From a virus (Duplodnaviria; Heunggongvirae; Uroviricota; Caudoviricetes): a DNA stretch of 64,000 bases. The DNA lies in IMG/VR virus record IMGVR_UViG_3300042322_000140, positions 64,228-128,227 of that record, one strand, 5' to 3'. A model generated the notes under the pieces. The model was given only the letters and a program-made list of their open reading frames with translations. It was not told where the DNA came from and ran no database searches. Position numbers and translations under genes: made by a program. Positions 3,652 through 49,238 of the stretch are shown here, one piece after another (the first letter of the stretch is position 1; every line of letters starts with the position of its first letter).

Positions 3652-4791
3652 TTAATCGAAATTCAATGATTCAAGAGGAGATATTGGTGATGTCTCTTCT
3701 TGTTTTGTTCTTGATACTCTTGTAGTATCTTGTACAATTTTTATCTTTTTTAAGTTTTCTAACTGTACGTTCTTTTTAGTTTCTGAAGTTACCCTCTTAA
3801 TGTATGTCTCTTTATCTAACATAAATTGAATAAGCTCTTTTGCTTTTTTAGGATCGTTCATCCATTCTTCATATATGTTATCTATTTCAAAAGATCCATT
3901 TTCATCTTTCTTAGTAGCTACATCAACAAACTTTCTAGTTAGGTTTTCTGATACACCTTCTTGTTTAAATTCTGATGCTAAACCTTTTCTATACTCTTTT
4001 ATTCTTTCTACTTCTTCTTTTTGCTCAGCTATAAGTTCTTGCTCTTTATTCTCAAGACCTTTGTAAAATTGTTGTCTTTGATAGTCAACTATTTTTTGAG
4101 CTTTTACATCAATTGTTAAGTCTTTTTTGGAAGATTCTACTAAAGCTCTTGTTTCAGAAGGGCTGTGTCCAATTATATTTTGGTAGTACCATGCTAATAC
4201 TTCTGCATTATGCCCATCATTATCTTCATCATATCCTTGAAAAGGCTCTTTTAAAGATTCTGGGTTTTGAAATAAAGCTTTTGCTAAATCGAGGTCTCCA
4301 CTCTTAACTATATTGATAAGACGTTTTTTAACCTCATCTAACCCCTCAATATCAACATACTTAGATTTTAACTCTTCGTCTTTTTGATCTTTTATGGCTT
4401 TTTCAAGGTTTTTAAAAGTGTCCTTATCTATATTGTCTAATTCAGAAAGAAGTTTTTCTGTACCGTCTTCTGTTTCAATTAGTACGTCTTCCCATTCTCC
4501 TGAGTCTAATCTATCTTTTACAATATCAAAATATATTGCATCTGAATTATTAAAGACTATTTCTTCTTTGTTCTCTTTTTTAGAAGGTTCATTCTTTTCT
4601 ACAACTACTTCTTCTTTTTCTTCTTTGTCGTCATTTTTTTCAGAATCGTCTGAGCTATCTTCCTTTTCGTCTGATAAGTCAATACTAACTTCTTCATCTT
4701 TTTTTGGATTAGCTCCCTCTTCTAATGAAAAATCGTTAAATTCTAGTAATTGTTCAAATGACAGTTCTTCTTGGTTTTGTTCTGTTCTCAT
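3652..4791 (-). CDS. acidic scaffolding-like protein
   Basis: 379 aa, extremely D/E/K-rich and low-complexity (EKEDSSDDSEKNDDKEEKEEVVVEK...). Sits between the portal and capsid genes. Confidence 0.45.
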   Translation of the reverse strand: MRTEQNQEELSFEQLLEFNDFSLEEGANPKKDEEVSIDLSDEKEDSSDDSEKNDDKEEKEEVVVEKNEPSKKENKEEIVFNNSDAIYFDIVKDRLDSGEWEDVLIETEDGTEKLLSELDNIDKDTFKNLEKAIKDQKDEELKSKYVDIEGLDEVKKRLINIVKSGDLDLAKALFQNPESLKEPFQGYDEDNDGHNAEVLAWYYQNIIGHSPSETRALVESSKKDLTIDVKAQKIVDYQRQQFYKGLENKEQELIAEQKEEVERIKEYRKGLASEFKQEGVSENLTRKFVDVATKKDENGSFEIDNIYEEWMNDPKKAKELIQFMLDKETYIKRVTSETKKNVQLENLKKIKIVQDTTRVSRTKQEETSPISPLESLNFD

Positions 4792-4895
4792 TTCTTGTGC
4801 AAAATTAGTGGTTTTTTTTGTAACTGCAAAATTAGTTAAAATTTGCCTTTCTTAAATTCCTGTTGTTAAATTATTTTTAATTAGTTAAATATTAT

Positions 4896-7673
4896 TTAAT
4901 TTTTGTTAATCTCTGCTATGTATCTATCATTCATCATAGATCTATCTTTTTGCTCTAGTTGTTTAATTTTAACCTCTAGATCTTTACTCATAGCGTCTGC
5001 CTTATCTGTTATTTGTTGTTCTTGTAGTCCTAGTCTTCTATCATTAATATCCATGTCGCTACTTGCCTTCATTTCTTTCAGTGCCATATCTGCTTGTAGG
5101 CTAATATTCTTGAAAGATTTTGCATCTGCGTCTTTGTCTGCGGCTCTACCTTGTGCTTGTATCTCCTCTTGCATAATTCTAGCTTCTCTATCTCTTTGAT
5201 TTTGGTCAGCCAGCCAAGCCCTATCTGCATTTTTCTCAGTAGCTGCACCTTGTATTTGTTTATCAGCAAGTTCTTGCTCGTGAGCTCTTTGTGCTTCAGT
5301 TTCTTTTTGTTTTTCGCCTCTTCCTTTTTTACCTATGGCTACAAGCTCTACTATTGTATCTGCTGAGAATAACTCTGCATAGTCAAGTAAATCGCTTCCT
5401 AAAGTGTTCATATTTAATAGGGCTTGTTTCATTGTTTCAAGCTCTCTACGTTTTTTAGGATCATTTACTGGGAATACTCCAATTCTTCTTAGTGGAAAAT
5501 CTGGATCTGATAAGTGCATAAATATTTTATCCCCATCAGAGTTTGAGAATACAAAATCAACATCTAGGTATTCTTTTTGACAATACTGTGCTATTGATAA
5601 ATGTAGCTCCATAGCTTTTCTTCTAGCAACTGCCATTGTATTAAATATATCAGCTGTTTGCATATAAGAAGCTTCTGTACCTTGTTTTACACCTGTGGCT
5701 GTCTCATACACGCTTGGTTGCCCTAATCTCTGTGGTGTTATACCAATTTGCTCTAAGGCTTTTCTTTGGTAGTATTCAGATAATTGTATTCTGCTATTTA
5801 TTTGTTTGTCAAAAGATATGTCTTGGGTCATGAACGTGTTCATTTGTCCATTTGCCCCTGCCATGTTCTGCTTGGTGGTATCTAAAGGTACTAATCCAAC
5901 ATCTTTTGCTAAATCTCTAAGCTTGCTTAATGACTCTTCAATTGTACCATGGTCTTTGTACTCCGATGGTAAGAAGTTTATATCAAATAAGAAAAACATA
6001 CCAATTTCTTTTTCGAGTAAGTTAAATATCTGGTTTAAACAAATATTATACCCAATTTGGTATGGTCTAAGCTTTTGTGCTATTGAAGATGCTATAATAC
6101 CACCAACTGGTATCTTTACATCAAATATATTAGATTCTCCTCTTATTTGGTAAGGTAGTGGCTCTACTCCTAAGTAAAGATTCTCTGTTAAGAAAGAGTT
6201 ACCAGCATTTATTTTTGTACCTTGCCAAATTTCAGGTACCCAAAACTCATACATACAGTTTGTTTCTAGATCTTTCTGTATATCTTTTAAAGCTTTTGTT
6301 GTAACCTTTTTTATATTATTTTCTTTTACAAATTCAGGTAGTATGTCATCTGTTACAATTGCTGTGTCTTCATATCCTGCTTCTGTTGTATAGTTTATAA
6401 ACCACATTCTTTTCCAGCTTCTCCAGTATGATTCGGTAACTTGTAATAAATCTTTTCTTACATTTATATCGTCTCTTTGTATTCTGCTGTAGTTATATGA
6501 GAGGTTATTATTGTTTTGGAATGGGCTTAGCCAGTTTGGTATTCTTTGTTGTCCGTCTGGTGTGTCTACTAGTACTTCTCCCATTGGTATATCCAATGCG
6601 TCCTGTATTTGTAAACCCATGTCGTAATTATAGTAGTTATGAAAAGGTAAAGTCTGAACTTGTCCAAACATCCCATTATTCATAGCATTTTTCCATGATT
6701 GTACTTGGGAACTAGCATTACCACCATCGGTTTCTGCATAGTTTATATTCAATTTTTTTATCTCATTAGAACTAAGTAAGTGTGAGTACCTTTTTATAAT
6801 GTCTGATGGAGATATATAAAAAACTCTACCAACATACTCACAGTCTTGTGGGTTTTCGGCAGTTACATCTTGTGAAAAGAATGTTTCTAAAGGTGACCAT
6901 CTTTCTGGTTTATAATAGTCATACCCTATATAATAGTTTCTAAAAAATCTTCCGGTAACTAAGTAATCTTCCATCTCTTGTTTGTCCAGCTTGTCCATAT
7001 AGAATCTTTGCTGATCTTTCTCAATAACATGTTCTGCCCACTCTGCGGCTTTTGTTTTCCAGTCTTTCATTTCCTTCTCAATCTGAGATGGGGATACGAT
7101 TTTTGCTTTCTCTTGCTCAAGCATTTGCATATACTGCTGTTGCTCTTCTTCACTTTTGAAATCTTGCTTATTAGGGTTTATCCCCATTTTATTAAGCTCA
7201 ATATCTAACTCTTTTTTGAATGTTTCTAGTGCATACTCTCTAACTCTATTTGTTCTTTCTCTTAGATATTCATTTTGAGAAATATCATCAATAGTGTCTA
7301 CTTTAAAGTCATCTTTTTGTTCAAGCCACTCTCCTACTAACTGTCTAGTAATAATACCTATAAAATCATAATGTTTTACAAATGTAGGTATTCCTACGCT
7401 GTCTCCTAAGTCTCTAACTCTATTTAAAACTTGGTTATCAGTCTCATAGTCTGAATATGCAAGTCTACCTTCTAGCATCTTATAAAGATCTCTGAATTTA
7501 ACATTCTCGCCTAGTTGAGATATTCCTATGGACTCAAGTGCGTCCATATTTTTCTTCTTCCATGCTAGCTTTTCTTTTTGGCTATCAGGAACTGTTTGTG
7601 TTGGAAGAGAGTGGGTAGAAGAAACTGATGTTCCAACCCCATTATAAAAAGAGTGTAAGTTATGACTGTCCAT
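4896..7673 (-). CDS. putative portal protein with long C-terminal coiled-coil/charged extension
   Basis: 925 aa, second gene after TerL. The C-terminal roughly 150 aa are charged with heptad-like repeats. The call rests on position and size. Confidence 0.5.
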   Translation of the reverse strand: MDSHNLHSFYNGVGTSVSSTHSLPTQTVPDSQKEKLAWKKKNMDALESIGISQLGENVKFRDLYKMLEGRLAYSDYETDNQVLNRVRDLGDSVGIPTFVKHYDFIGIITRQLVGEWLEQKDDFKVDTIDDISQNEYLRERTNRVREYALETFKKELDIELNKMGINPNKQDFKSEEEQQQYMQMLEQEKAKIVSPSQIEKEMKDWKTKAAEWAEHVIEKDQQRFYMDKLDKQEMEDYLVTGRFFRNYYIGYDYYKPERWSPLETFFSQDVTAENPQDCEYVGRVFYISPSDIIKRYSHLLSSNEIKKLNINYAETDGGNASSQVQSWKNAMNNGMFGQVQTLPFHNYYNYDMGLQIQDALDIPMGEVLVDTPDGQQRIPNWLSPFQNNNNLSYNYSRIQRDDINVRKDLLQVTESYWRSWKRMWFINYTTEAGYEDTAIVTDDILPEFVKENNIKKVTTKALKDIQKDLETNCMYEFWVPEIWQGTKINAGNSFLTENLYLGVEPLPYQIRGESNIFDVKIPVGGIIASSIAQKLRPYQIGYNICLNQIFNLLEKEIGMFFLFDINFLPSEYKDHGTIEESLSKLRDLAKDVGLVPLDTTKQNMAGANGQMNTFMTQDISFDKQINSRIQLSEYYQRKALEQIGITPQRLGQPSVYETATGVKQGTEASYMQTADIFNTMAVARRKAMELHLSIAQYCQKEYLDVDFVFSNSDGDKIFMHLSDPDFPLRRIGVFPVNDPKKRRELETMKQALLNMNTLGSDLLDYAELFSADTIVELVAIGKKGRGEKQKETEAQRAHEQELADKQIQGAATEKNADRAWLADQNQRDREARIMQEEIQAQGRAADKDADAKSFKNISLQADMALKEMKASSDMDINDRRLGLQEQQITDKADAMSKDLEVKIKQLEQKDRSMMNDRYIAEINKN

Positions 7674-15943: not shown

Positions 15944-16405
15944 ATGTCGGTACACAACTGGATCCATAACGGGTATGACATTAATAGTATAGCAGATATG
16001 CAAAGGCATTGCCCCAAAGTGTGGGGCTTTGTCTATAAGCTTACCCTATACAAGAAAGGTACAAAGTCTGTAGAGTTTGAGTACATAGGTAAAAAGAATG
16101 TATACTCTAAAAGAAAAAGAGTCTTTGGAAAAAAAGAAACAGAAGCATTAGGTGACAAACGTAAGAAAAATTATGAACACGTTATTAAAGAAGCCGATTG
16201 GAAACTATACGTATCGAGTAATAAGTTCATAAAACTAAACAGTTCAAAATTTGATATTTCTAGAGAGATTTTATGTTTTTCTACAAACGATAATGATTTG
16301 ACTTACCAAGAAGCAAAAGAAATAATCTGCTCAGGGGCACTAGAAGACTGTAGATTTCTAAATGATGGGGTATCAATTCGTAGATTTGGTAAAAAAACTT
16401 TATAA
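15944..16405 (+). CDS. GIY-YIG endonuclease-like protein (possible homing endonuclease)
   Basis: WGFVYKLT...YIGKK motif pair typical of GIY-YIG. 153 aa. Abuts the recA stop. Confidence 0.45.
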   Translation: MSVHNWIHNGYDINSIADMQRHCPKVWGFVYKLTLYKKGTKSVEFEYIGKKNVYSKRKRVFGKKETEALGDKRKKNYEHVIKEADWKLYVSSNKFIKLNSSKFDISREILCFSTNDNDLTYQEAKEIICSGALEDCRFLNDGVSIRRFGKKTL

Positions 16406-22264: not shown

Positions 22265-22577
22265 AAAAAAATTAGCCCTCTTCCGGTGCACTGGTAAGGA
22301 TCGAAGATGGAGATTACTGATACGATTGAAATAAAAACCTCTTCGGAGTTATCGTATAGGCGAGGATGCTCACCGGAACGTATGCCGGCACAGTTGTAGC
22401 TCTGGGGATAATTCAAAAGCTATAAAATATTGGGGGCAGGGCAAAACCTAGACAGCTTCTAAGCAGGGTTAAATCTGGACAGCCCCCATAATATTGCGTT
22501 AAAGTGTAAAGGTTGCATTCTGGTCTCATAAGTCAGAGGGGTGGTTCGATTCCACGTTACGCTACTAAATATAAAGT
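22265..22577 (+). ncRNA. unclassified structured RNA-like intergenic element
   Basis: ORF-free and GC-richer than the flanks. Long-range helices include CTTCCGGTGC/GCTCACCGGAAC, TGGGGGC/GCCCCCA, GATACGAT/ATCGTATA, and a CUC-UUCG-GAG tetraloop hairpin. A GGTTCGATTCC T-loop-like motif lies at 22543-22553. No cloverleaf could be closed. Confidence 0.35.
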
Positions 22578-47643: not shown

Positions 47644-48181
47644 TAAAAAATAACCTGTACCCCCGAAAAACTCGTATTTAAAGATAAGCAGGTTAGCTCT
47701 TATATAAAGGGGTATTAGAATAAGAGCAAAGGTGGTGTACCCAACCCGAAATGGGTGCTATTGGTCTCTGAAGAAAAGGGAACGCTTGTGAGTGGCAGTA
47801 CATAACTCTCAAAAATAGCTAAGCTGTGTAAAGCACCAGATCTGATAAACTGTGTGAAGCTATGGGTTAAACATTGAATACCTTTGTAAGAGAACCGTTA
47901 TCTGCACCTTTTAGGTAGTAGAGAGCATACGTCATACTTCCATAAAGATACTATCAGTAATGGTAGATGTGTTGTTCCCTTGAGAAAGGAATGGTTAATA
48001 AAGAGATTAGACTTAATTGTTTGCTATCTACAACACAAATGAGTTCTCAGCAAGTAGTTATGAGATTCGAGCCTGCAAAGTTCTTTGAAGTAACTATGTG
48101 ACCCTACTCTTGGTCCGGCTACGTAAGCTGATGCCGCTTACATGAAAGAGGGTGCTAAATTTTAATTAAAATAAATATAAA

Positions 48182-48355
48182 ATGAAAAAGATTTTCTTTT
48201 TAATGGCTATTATTTTAGCCTTTAGCGTAACAAGTTGTAAACAAGCTAGTGAAGTAAATTCAGATGCAACAACAGATTCAACAGCAGTTCAAGTTGATTC
48301 AAATGGTGTAGACACAACAAGTGTTGATACTACTGCTTTAGATACAGTTAAATAG
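48182..48355 (+). CDS. small Thr/Ser/Asp-rich lipoprotein (57 aa) embedded in the RNA island
   Basis: MKKIFFLMAIILAFSVTSC lipoprotein signal. Below the ORF-track cutoff. Confidence 0.35.
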   Translation: MKKIFFLMAIILAFSVTSCKQASEVNSDATTDSTAVQVDSNGVDTTSVDTTALDTVK

Positions 48356-48529
48356 TATTTAAGGATCGAGGCTTCTTCCTTTGAATGAAGCTACGCTACC
48401 GAAATGATAAGTGCCCTCACACGAGGGATTTTTAAAGAATGTTTTGGGTATGTTGGAAGGGGAAACAAGCACTGTGATCAGTGTGGCATAGAGTTGAGAG
48501 TCCGGATGTCAAAACTCTTTTAAGTCCTT

Positions 48530-48554
48530 GAGGGTTCGAGTCCCTCTACCTAAT
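48530..48554 (+). other. orphan tRNA-like T-arm plus 3' acceptor module
   Basis: GAGGG-TTCGAGT-CCCTC followed by TACCTAA. No 5' partner was found at tRNA spacing. Confidence 0.3.
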
Positions 48555-48590
48555 CGAAATAGTTTGTTGATGTATTATTGAATTTTGTTT

Positions 48591-48856
48591 GGACGGGAGT
48601 TCGATTCTCCCCACCTCCACAAGAGTTTCCTTGAACTATAAACAAGGTGGTGGAGTCGCTGAGAAATCAGAGACCTAACAGTTTGAGGGAGCGTTCTGTT
48701 TAAAAACGTAACAATAGGGGGTGACTGGTTTTGACAGCAATCTAGTAGGTAGTAAGTAGAACTAATTTCAAATTTAAACGACAACGTTTACCAACTTGGT
48801 GGGGTGCAAAGAATTGCAGCTTAACCACGCCTAGGGAGAGCGACATCTCCCTAACT
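48591..48856 (+). ncRNA. candidate circularly permuted (two-piece) tmRNA-like gene
   Basis: Acceptor piece: 48591 GGAC, GGGAG-TTCGATT-CTCCC (T-arm), CACCTCC-A (3' acceptor strand, 48612-48619). Coding piece: 48717 GGGGGTG-A-CTGGTTTTGAC-AGC, which matches the tmRNA 5' consensus GGGGnUGAnnnnGGnUUCGAC. GGGGGTG pairs with CACCTCC (6 Watson-Crick pairs plus one G·U). Tag-like frame ...AAC GAC AAC GTT TAC ... ATT GCA GCT TAA (N-D-N-V-Y...I-A-A-stop, ending at 48824). Then hairpin TAGGGAGA-gcgaca-TCTCCCTA (48832-48853). The tRNA-Met 5' end at 48857 would define the 3' end. Confidence 0.4.
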
Positions 48857-48930
48857 GGTCCTATAGCTCATTCGGTTAGAGCAACTGACTCATAATCAGT
48901 AGGTGCTTGGTTCGATTCCAAGTGGGACCA
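48857..48930 (+). tRNA. tRNA-Met: tRNA-Met(CAU) (elongator or Ile-lysidine type)
   Basis: The full cloverleaf was folded by hand. Acceptor GGTCCTA/TGGGACC (one G·U). U8 A9. D-stem GCTC/GAGC. Anticodon stem ACTGA/TCAGT with loop CT-CAT-AA. Variable loop AGGTG. T-arm CTTGG-TTCGATT-CCAAG. Discriminator A. CCA is not encoded. Confidence 0.9.
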
Positions 48931-49193
48931 CTTAGCAAGGCATAAACGATAAGGAATACTCGTCACAGGTTTATGTTGAGTTGCAGACGGGCCGAAATGC
49001 TTACGGTTAACAAGGCTTAACTCATAAAGTCTAGAGAGCAAAATCTAACGAGTGACTGATGGAAAGACATCAACATGGGAAAGTAGCAGATAAGGTCGCC
49101 CCTGAACTGTGAGTGGGACTAATGTGACGGTCAATCGTAAAGGCTCAAGGTACGTAACAAGTAGTAGTTGGTTGGAGTAAGTGACTTAGCATC

Positions 49194-49217
49194 GGGGGTT
49201 CGATTCCCCCCTTTTTT
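49194..49217 (+). terminator. tRNA-T-arm-like hairpin GGGGG-TTCGATT-CCCCC(C) plus T6
   Basis: Ends the ORF-free RNA island. The hairpin is directly followed by TTTTTT. Confidence 0.5.
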
Positions 49218-49238
49218 ACAAACTAAAAATTATATAAA

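Follow-up and report, generated by a model that had tools for sequence, protein, structure and literature searches.

A probable circularly permuted, two-piece tmRNA gene of compact architecture in a large marine phage

Transfer-messenger RNA (tmRNA) rescues stalled ribosomes. A stretch of 64,000 nucleotides (nt) from the IMG/VR virus record IMGVR_UViG_3300042322_000140 (positions 64,228 to 128,227), referred to here as the window, very probably carries a functional, circularly permuted, two-piece tmRNA (ssrA) gene of a large marine phage, as judged by comparison with related loci. Coordinates are positions in the window, and all elements of the gene lie on the plus strand. The Rfam family RF04321 (tmRNA_permuted) matches 48562-48824 over the full model (1-213) with 64.1 bits, the gathering score of the family being 47 (E = 4.7e-10, with the whole window searched), and the acceptor piece comes first in the gene, ahead of the intervening sequence and the coding piece. 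This order recurs at 13 further related loci at which RF04321 also scores above its threshold, including those of the cultured phages Panino (62.2 bits) and MA9V-3 (64.7 bits). Besides this membership in a covariance-model family, the locus has the sequence features of a tmRNA, a structure that is both conserved and covarying, and a conserved tag reading frame.

An initial annotation, made from the letters of the window and a list of its open reading frames (ORFs), had proposed a tmRNA-like gene with its halves in reversed order, and all that it reads from the sequence proves correct when checked base by base. The segment 48591-48619 reads GGAC / GGGAG-TTCGATT-CTCCC / CACCTCC-A and corresponds to the tRNA-like 3' end, 48717-48738 reads GGGGGTG-A-CTGGTTTTGAC-AGC and corresponds to the 5' end, the two 7-mers pair fully with a single G·U at position 3, and the 3' half lies upstream of the 5' half across a gap of 97 nt. 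The covariance-model search that it proposed returned the RF04321 match given above, and ARAGORN reports permuted tmRNAs in the related contigs L001, L003 and L004, with the tag frame that the annotation had put forward. The proposal of a permuted two-piece tmRNA with a tag frame is thus supported by RF04321 and by covariation in relatives.

Anatomy of the two pieces

The acceptor piece (48561-48619) is defined by the RF04321 match and by the covariation of its T arm, acceptor stem and segment P2a of helix 2, its 5' end lying somewhere in 48555-48561. It contains the 3'-side strands of helix 2, namely P2c (48561-65), P2b (48575-80) and P2a (48585-91), of which P2b and P2c are weakly supported, followed by GGAC (48591-94, read from the sequence), the T arm (48595-99 paired with 48607-11 around the loop TTCGATT), the acceptor 3' strand CACCTCC (48612-18), which pairs with GGGGGTG, and the discriminator A48619. 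The next bases are CAAG, and a CCA end is therefore not encoded. The intervening sequence, or spacer, occupies 97 nt (48620-48716) and was characterized by alignment, pair counts, motif statistics and folding of the nascent transcript.

The coding piece of 140 nt (48717-48856), identified by RF04321, by the alignments and by its match to a profile of one-piece phage tmRNAs, begins with the acceptor 5' strand GGGGGTG (48717-23), in which the third G forms the G3·U pair (48719/48616), and continues with the analogue of the D loop (48724-35) and the 5'-side strands of helix 2 (48735-63). An A/U-rich linker of 16 nt (48764-79) separates P2c from the resume codon, and the tag reading frame runs from the resume codon GAC (48780-82) to the stop codon TAA (48822-24). 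Helix 5 (48799-48828), composed of an outer stem (48799-802/48825-28) and an inner stem (48805-09/48814-18), encloses the end of the tag and holds the stop codon within its 3' side, helix 5 being by definition the helix that carries the stop codon (PMC3968760). Behind it stands an 8-bp post-stop hairpin with the loop GCGACA (48832-39/48846-53), then ACU, then a tRNA. The initial annotation had seen this tight hairpin and had put it in the helix-5 position; the hairpin is there, but it lies after helix 5, in the position where pseudoknot 2 (PK2) would be. Similar hairpins with R-CGA-(A/C)-A loops are also present in Panino and in the contigs L056 and L086.

Downstream of helix 5, there is no space for a pseudoknot, the single hairpin being followed by the tRNA-Met gene, and the predicted mature RNA would total about 205 nt. 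The linker before the resume codon, with only 16 nt, also leaves no room for pseudoknot 1 (PK1). In E. coli, PK1 is normally needed for tagging, and a stable hairpin can substitute for it experimentally (PMC3968760), so that a missing PK1 lowers the conformity of the gene to the family and does not exclude function.

Covariation and conservation

Two alignments were used to evaluate the structure. The first, A1, is an unbiased MAFFT alignment of the window with the contigs L001, L004, L031 and L003, scored against the proposed structure, and the second, A2, comprises 13 distinct tRNA-like domains, including those of the cultured phage Panino and the crAss-like cr114_1. In A1, 95.8% of the cells are paired and 13 pairs are changed on both sides. 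Sliding the partners by 1-3 columns lowers these values to 40-52% and 0-3, respectively, and none of 500 shuffles reaches the observed values; the structure was derived from the A1 sequences themselves, which inflates the percentage of pairing and the count of double changes less so. These double changes are distributed over the acceptor stem (1), the T arm (3), P2a (3) and P2c (1) and, in the coding piece, over the inner stem of helix 5 (2) and the post-stop hairpin (3), the latter being 100% paired. The inner stem of helix 5 appears as TGCAA/TTGCA or as ACAGCT/AGCTGT, with two pairs changed on both sides; its outer stem shows no covariation in A1.

A2 gives a similar picture, with 96.6% of the cells paired and 10 pairs changed on both sides, and in this alignment the tRNA-like domain is the best conserved functional part. 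The acceptor stem is 100% paired with three covarying pairs, and G3·U, the alanine identity pair, is invariant (13/13). The T arm covaries at three pairs across A1 and A2, and P2a has three to four pairs changed on both sides. Compensatory changes in the acceptor stem, to which the initial annotation had pointed as a decisive check in related phages, are present as fully paired variants in L003 (GGGGATG/CATCTCC) and in cr114_1 (GGGGCAT/ATGCTCC). The distal parts of helix 2, P2b and P2c, should help to hold the two pieces together.

Tag reading frame

In the window, the tag peptide is DNVYQLGGVQRIAA, encoded from GAC 48780-82 to TAA 48822-24, with a hydrophobic C-terminus that ends in Ala-Ala. 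The corresponding tags of the close relatives are DNVYQLGGVQRRFAA, DNVYQLGGVQLRAVA, DNVYTLGGVQKRFAA and GDVYQLGGVQLRAVA, and among the five close sequences there is an in-frame 3-nt indel, silent changes are found in Gly and Val codons, and the stop is kept in frame. In 14 of 14 permuted sequences, the frame opens with GAC or GGN and is preceded by UAA (or a close variant) plus two bases. The frame described in the initial annotation is open and ends at the same stop, but its start at AAC is less likely than one codon later: the tag probably starts at GAC 48780, since the UAA-NN-resume motif, the ARAGORN calls in relatives and the Rfam alignment agree on this resume codon. Given the later start, the likeness of the opening 'NDN' to the ANDENY of E. 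coli, on which that annotation had remarked, appears to be partly accidental.

Flanking tRNAs and proposed processing

The coding piece abuts a tRNA-Met (CAT) gene without encoded CCA (48857-48931, plus strand; called by ARAGORN and by Rfam with 69.5 bits), as had been noticed initially, and a tRNA-Met lies at the same position in L001, L003, L004 and L031, at most 3 nt from the post-stop hairpin. Members that are more distantly related have an intrinsic terminator at the end of the coding piece instead of a tRNA. On the other side, directly upstream of the acceptor piece, there is a tRNA-like element of 111 nt (48444-48554, plus strand) with a 7-bp acceptor-like stem, TTGGGTA (48444-50) with TACCTAA (48547-53), and a T arm GAGGG-TTCGAGT-CCCTC at 48530-46. 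The minimum-free-energy fold of 48444-48554 forms both the stem and the T arm, with an energy that is not better than that of shuffles (z = -0.10), and neither ARAGORN nor Rfam calls the element as a tRNA. In related phages, the upstream position is filled by real tRNAs, such as an 85-nt tRNA-Met(CAT) in L004, a tRNA-Ala in L072 and a tRNA-Asp in Panino.

The simplest model for this arrangement would be a precursor punctuated by tRNAs, from which RNase P of the host and an activity of RNase Z type would cut the pieces before CCA is added; a role of these two enzymes in other two-piece tmRNAs has been proposed in a review (PMC3985003). Cutting into two paired RNAs is suggested by the flanking tRNA and tRNA-like elements together with the need for a free 3' end. 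A single precursor would be transcribed through the cluster of tRNA-like elements and cut by the tRNA-processing enzymes of the host. The acceptor piece would gain its 5' end when the 3' end of the upstream tRNA-like element is processed, and its chargeable 3' end through cleavage after A48619 by an RNase Z-type enzyme and the subsequent addition of CCA, and RNase P would cut before G48717 and before tRNA-Met (48857), releasing the coding piece of 140 nt and the spacer of 97 nt. The acceptor piece would then measure about 62-68 nt, with the expected 3' end ...CACCUCCACCA. CCA addition by the host is assumed because the neighbouring tRNA-Met likewise lacks an encoded CCA.

Once released, the two pieces would pair through the 7-bp acceptor stem and helix 2 into a tRNA-Ala-like domain with G3·U, which could be charged with alanine, bind host SmpB and EF-Tu and enter stalled ribosomes. 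Translation would resume at GAC 48780, adding A-DNVYQLGGVQRIAA, and the hydrophobic Ala-Ala end should target the protein for proteolysis. The likely benefit for the phage would be that ribosome recycling is kept up during infection, possibly with a tag of the phage's own choosing. We infer the processing steps, charging, use of SmpB, tagging and this benefit from the sequence.

The conserved spacer

The spacer contains hairpin A (48629-33/48643-47), the motif UGGUGGAG (48648-55) and hairpin B, which has a GAAA loop of the GNRA type (48655-57 and 48659-62 paired with 48667-70 and 48672-74), with the motif placed between the two hairpins. The block 48624-48662 reads AGTTTCCTTGAACTATAAACAAGGTGGTGGAGTC(G/A)CTGA and is identical in the five close sequences except for one G/A position, at which L003 differs. 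In A1, this block is the most conserved part, and the functional helices around it vary freely. The motif UGGUGGAG and the mature 3' end CUCCACCA are exactly complementary, and an occurrence of this 8-mer is expected 0.0007 times in 97 nt.

A comparable module is present in a family of one-piece phage tmRNAs, in which the region between the tag and helix 2 consists of a hairpin, GTGGTGGA, a second hairpin and ACC. The motif TGGTGG is found in 23 of 23 members of this family and TGGTGGA in 21 of 23, against none of 27 host tmRNAs and 5 of 198 other permuted precursors, and the hairpin-UGGUGGAG-hairpin core is common only to the permuted close relatives and the one-piece phage family. The spacers of Panino, cr114_1 and other distant relatives that were examined lack the UGGUGGAG module. 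The match of the one-piece post-tag module to the window spacer has E = 0.011 over 1.8 kb and about 0.2 over 3 Mb, which makes homology of the two modules only suggestive. Moreover, the spacer module sits between the 3' and 5' acceptor strands, and a simple circular permutation of the one-piece gene predicts otherwise.

In predicted folds of the nascent transcript, the acceptor 3' strand pairs with UGGUGGAG until G1-G7 have been made and thereafter forms the acceptor stem, the two duplexes having about equal stabilities (-14.1 and -13.2 kcal/mol). Because the predicted folds switch between two near-equal duplexes, a role of the motif as a placeholder, or anti-acceptor, is plausible, this being a model-based reading noticed after the fact. 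Two other readings that involve the spacer were considered and set aside. The conserved block as a repeated promoter or other DNA signal was rejected, as it is unique within the window; a sigma-70 scan found nothing on the plus strand, Bacteroidota promoters lying outside the scope of that scan. A pairing of GCGAC in the post-stop loop with GTCGC in the spacer, seen by eye, is broken in L003 without compensation.

Lineage and sister one-piece gene

The window has a G+C content of about 33% and encodes a large portal protein, a ribonucleotide reductase, a family A DNA polymerase and other phage genes. The best cultured matches of the portal are the Cellulophaga phages phi4:1 and phi17:2 (40% identity), with crAss-like phages next, and by these similarities the phage that carries the gene is related to both groups. 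A BLAST search of the tmRNA region against GenBank phages returned short partial matches only, and close relatives in IMG/VR are contigs of 106-131 kb with NrdB proteins 88-94% identical. The portal matches, the partial GenBank matches and the IMG/VR relatives indicate that the source is most likely a large uncultured marine phage of Bacteroidota.

The 5' end GGGGGUGACUGGUUUUGAC is identical to that of one-piece host tmRNAs of Bacteroidota. Hosts with the same 19-mer include Dyadobacter, Telluribacter, Wenyingzhuangia, Ochrovirga and Bacteroidales, with the tags GENNYALAA, GESTYAMAA and GEESFAMAA. Among viral contigs, this 19-mer is present in 52, about a dozen of them permuted and the remainder standard one-piece genes. 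One such sister is L035 (IMGVR_UViG_3300010885_017276), whose NrdB is 90% identical and whose one-piece tmRNA (RF00023, 93.7 bits) lies in the corresponding neighbourhood, flanked by nrdB and by a noncoding block that the window also has. The one-piece family profile matches the permuted gene of the window in two places, with its 3' end at 48571-48620 (E = 1.2e-12) and its 5' end at 48717-48754 (E = 2e-6).

At least 205 viral stretches were recovered by two gapped-pattern scans that demanded the permuted order, and most of them have another 5' motif and AND...ALAA tags. The 175 permuted genes called by ARAGORN in viral contigs mostly have AND..ALAA-type tags and a different 5' motif, tags that resemble those of alpha- and betaproteobacteria. 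At the locus itself, no family of clan CL00001 beats the partial RF00023 match (31.9 bits), in a copy of Rfam that may not hold the three lineage-specific models, and a comparison of helix-2 identity across lineages was uninformative as shuffled AT-rich controls score equally high. Hosts, tag type and synteny together point to a separate permutation in Bacteroidota phages, the gene having probably arisen from a one-piece tmRNA of Bacteroidota type. For the three permuted lineages already recognised, the comparison rests on reviews.

Counter-evidence and alternative explanations

Several observations weigh against a functional permuted tmRNA at this locus or against parts of its description. 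RF04321 stays below its threshold in L003. ARAGORN calls a permuted tmRNA in the window, as the initial annotation had suggested it should, but at 48530-49101 with the tag DKEYSSQVYVELQTGRNAYG, so that the limits and the tag differ from those of the favoured gene. This call was rejected as a chimera with neighbouring tRNA-like elements, since Rfam and the ARAGORN calls in relatives back the other frame; its start lies near the T arm of the upstream tRNA-like element, and its 'tag' is taken from the conserved block beyond tRNA-Met. For distal helix 2, duplex energies are no better than those of shuffles (mean z = -0.49), for which reason P2b and P2c remain tentative, and both barely covary, with one double change in A1. 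PK1 is absent, with only the 16 A/U-rich nt at 48764-79 before the resume codon, and tagging competence is therefore not assured. Among the 20 mid-sized ORFs of the window, which is part of the genome, no SmpB gene was found, and function would hence depend on host SmpB accepting the RNA. Additionally, the separate origin is argued from hosts, tag type and synteny and not from phylogeny.

The missing PK1 also lends some appeal to the idea that the RNA acts mainly as a decoy of tRNA-like form, which would titrate SmpB or compete with the tmRNA of the host and so shut down or redirect host trans-translation, its tag frame being secondary. There is a precedent in mycobacteriophage DS6A, which carries little more than a tRNA-like domain, a molecule of this kind being a strong inhibitor of tmRNA, perhaps via titration of SmpB (PMC4131195, PMC11915505), and the tRNA-like domain is the best conserved functional part here. 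A decoy, however, would need neither a tag nor helix 5, whereas the relatives preserve the length, reading frame and core sequence of the tag, with an indel that stays in frame and a hydrophobic end rich in Ala, and helix 5 with its stop codon is kept and covaries, so that this explanation appears improbable. Slightly less probable again is a decaying relic, that is, a one-piece phage tmRNA gene broken by rearrangement and no longer functional. The intact one-piece gene of a sister phage at the same locus, the loss of all pseudoknots and the location in an RNA cluster that is a hypervariable region with insertions would fit such a history; yet the permuted order is kept in five diverged relatives and in distant phages, and compensatory changes in five helices together with the open tag frame bespeak purifying selection.

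The least credible explanations, to which hardly any weight can be given, are a chance resemblance in a tRNA-rich region, a one-piece tmRNA with its 5' end upstream, or an antisense ORF. ARAGORN does give false positives for permuted genes in tRNA arrays, an example being Cellulophaga phage phi4:1 (L093, NC_021788), where the call at 4431-5092 covers 660 nt of tRNA array without Rfam support and was discarded; the 'Permuted' entry for this phage in Table S1 of PMC9004378 is for the same reason probably a false positive. At the window locus, RF04321 is well above threshold and covariation is present. The one-piece version could appeal to a match of RF00023 at 48459-48622, but this is below threshold (31.9 bits), conservation among relatives does not extend upstream of 48530, and no more than 4 of the 7 acceptor bases find a partner in GGGGAAA at 48460, which agrees with the initial remark that no well-placed 5' partner exists upstream and led to rejection of this reading. 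As for the minus strand, it does hold an ORF of 69 amino acids (48575-48784), but the spacer measures 97, 92, 94 and 131 nt in the window, L004, L031 and L003, indels that are not multiples of three and that break the frame.

Within the preferred reading of a functional permuted tmRNA, a more ambitious version would join a fourth independent origin of permuted tmRNA to a functional anti-acceptor spacer, and this combination is considered speculative and rather doubtful. On the side of the origin, the gene would have arisen inside Bacteroidota phages from the one-piece gene kept by the sister phage and would be the first tag-encoding tmRNA without any pseudoknot. On the side of the spacer, it would act during transcription as a placeholder, occupying the 3' strand until the partner strand has been made 100 nt further on, or as a released third RNA pairing with the CCA ends of tmRNA or tRNA-Ala.

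Neighbouring elements

Beyond tRNA-Met, on its 3' side, lies a conserved noncoding block (48932-49235) that is 79-94% identical in L001, L004, L031 and L002. At its end stands a T arm, GGGGG-TTCGATT-CCCCC (49194-49210), which covaries in relatives, with GC changed to AU at two pairs, and which has a closing stem TGGGAAAG/CTTTTTTA and a T-run; the block may represent a second stable RNA of tRNA-like form, a terminator, or both. An insertion of 443 nt in L001 separates the tRNA from the block, and in L031 and L002 an insertion of about 190 nt with a tRNA-like element is located inside it.

Upstream of the gene, the noncoding stretch 47812-48111 is 68% conserved just upstream of the one-piece tmRNA of L035 (4788-5103 there). 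A faint match to the tmRNA-family motifs AAGGTGGTG ... TAAGCTGTGTAAA at 47715-47832 (E = 0.33) overlaps its 5' edge, and the stretch may encode a further structured RNA. Right after a small ORF (48182-48355) stands a hairpin resembling an intrinsic terminator, CCCTC-ACAC-GAGGG with ATTTTT behind it (48414-48433), so that transcription of the RNA cluster may begin anew or need read-through. Elsewhere in the window, 22495-22564 gives a weak tRNA match (Rfam 32.2 bits, with several non-canonical pairs) that ARAGORN does not call, and the ORF 15944-16405 encodes a SegE-type GIY-YIG homing-endonuclease domain (Pfam PF19835, E = 1.8e-12).

Significance

At its core, the finding amounts to an annotation and not to a discovery, because the gene type is known and the current Rfam model detects it. 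Nevertheless, a natural tag-encoding tmRNA of about 205 nt without pseudoknots would bear on what PK1 and the pseudoknot ring are for and could serve as a minimal scaffold for study, and the occurrence of one-piece and permuted forms at one locus in close phages offers an unusually recent view of the circular permutation of an RNA gene. The spacer, being the most constrained part and complementary to the CCA end, may regulate folding or charging; in other permuted lineages, it is presumed to be discarded. All three points are testable at the bench, as the same gene type is present in cultured phage-host pairs (Maribacter phage Panino and Chryseobacterium phage MA9V-3).

Comparison with known systems

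The initial annotation had regarded a permuted phage tmRNA as new, which does not hold: two-piece phage tmRNAs were reported in 2022 (PMC9004378), and Panino, MA9V-3 and cr114_1 carry the same type as the window. That study describes a two-piece tmRNA in the OM43 phage Melnitz and in pelagimyophages, finds two-piece forms to be common in the tmRNAs of marine phages (by ARAGORN, 53 of 133 unique phage tmRNAs) and, in its Table S1, marks crAss-like phages as 'Permuted', including cr114_1, whose call appears in the supplement only. The Rfam family RF04321 was built in 2025 by merging three lineage models, RF01849-51, in a paper that speaks of three main clades with permuted forms (PMC11915505). 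In the tmRNA database of 2025, Bacteroidota have 24,380 standard genes against 48 permuted ones. No paper was found on a pseudoknot-free Bacteroidota-phage tmRNA, on a switch between one-piece and permuted forms in sister phages or on a conserved spacer, and the compact pseudoknot-free type of Bacteroidota phages seems not to have been described before.

The two-piece tmRNAs of alpha- and some betaproteobacteria and of cyanobacteria, such as Caulobacter ssrA, resemble the window gene in gene order and in a tRNA-like domain made of two RNAs with G3·U; their tags likewise end in a hydrophobic residue and Ala-Ala, and their maturation is presumed to involve RNase P and RNase Z (PMC3985003). As a rule, PK1 and PK2 are retained in the coding piece of known two-piece tmRNAs, whereas the window gene has neither. 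Furthermore, the first tag residue is Asp or Gly in the window type and Ala in proteobacterial and cyanobacterial permuted tags, the 5' motif ACUGGUUUUGAC is unlike that of those lineages and matches Bacteroidota hosts, and the coding piece ends at a tRNA or a terminator, unlike in the known two-piece lineages. The Melnitz gene is likewise a permuted ssrA in a large marine lytic phage, but it is alphaproteobacterial in type and reportedly under a glutamine riboswitch (PMC9004378), and an Rfam search found no riboswitch at the window locus.

The same compact permuted architecture is found in Panino (PP540027), MA9V-3 (PV245944) and cr114_1, with RF04321 scores of 62.2, 64.7 and 50.9 bits and the tags GKVMNVSFAPTVRQFA, GNVIDINKYVAKLEVAA and GNFYVTDYTRIAA, respectively. 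Their GenBank records annotate the gene plainly as tmRNA, and the papers on Panino and MA9V-3 are silent on its permutation. In Panino, the permuted tmRNA is bracketed by tRNA-Asp and tRNA-Thr. MA9V-3 also has, according to its paper, a gene annotated as ClpX. The ClpX protein is an unfoldase that recognises ssrA tags. The spacer of cr114_1 (L092, NC_055897) holds a tRNA-His (1555-1627), unlike that of the window, and a RAGATH-9 RNA (1031-1198, 153.7 bits) lies about 290 nt upstream of its permuted tmRNA. In the crAss-like cr125_1, an annotated tmRNA lies under a BLAST match. A further permuted tmRNA of the Bacteroidota-phage type, with the tag GEYSQTYRMAA, is located at 3521-3814 of L096, from a metagenome-assembled genome labelled 'uncultured Clostridium sp.' (CAYXOL010000017.1); this 87-kb contig may be a mis-binned phage contig.

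The one-piece phage family, comprising L035 (5196-5518) and about 30 other viral contigs such as L039, L043 and L054, shares with the window gene the 5' 19-mer, the lack of an encoded CCA, a similar helix-2 3' strand and TGGTGG(A). This family differs in its standard order, in its PK1 region and in its unusually long tags, such as ANAQIEANMNKVFSLLGEEVAVAA and VVSQGDNAQIEANMNKVFSLLNEDVILGVAA, and it keeps the TGGTGGA module inside the mature RNA, between the tag and helix 2, where the window has it in the spacer. Cellulophaga phage Calle_2 is a more distant one-piece relative, likewise without an encoded CCA and with a 5' end one base different (GGGGGCG). The Bacteroidota host tmRNAs have the same 5' end as the window and tags that likewise do not start with Ala (Gly or Glu instead), but they are one-piece RNAs of 370-400 nt with short tags (GENNYALAA and similar) and without TGGTGGA. 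In summary, a permuted tmRNA in a phage is a known type of gene, and what appears unusual in the present one is its minimal architecture, its likely independent origin and its unexplained conserved spacer.

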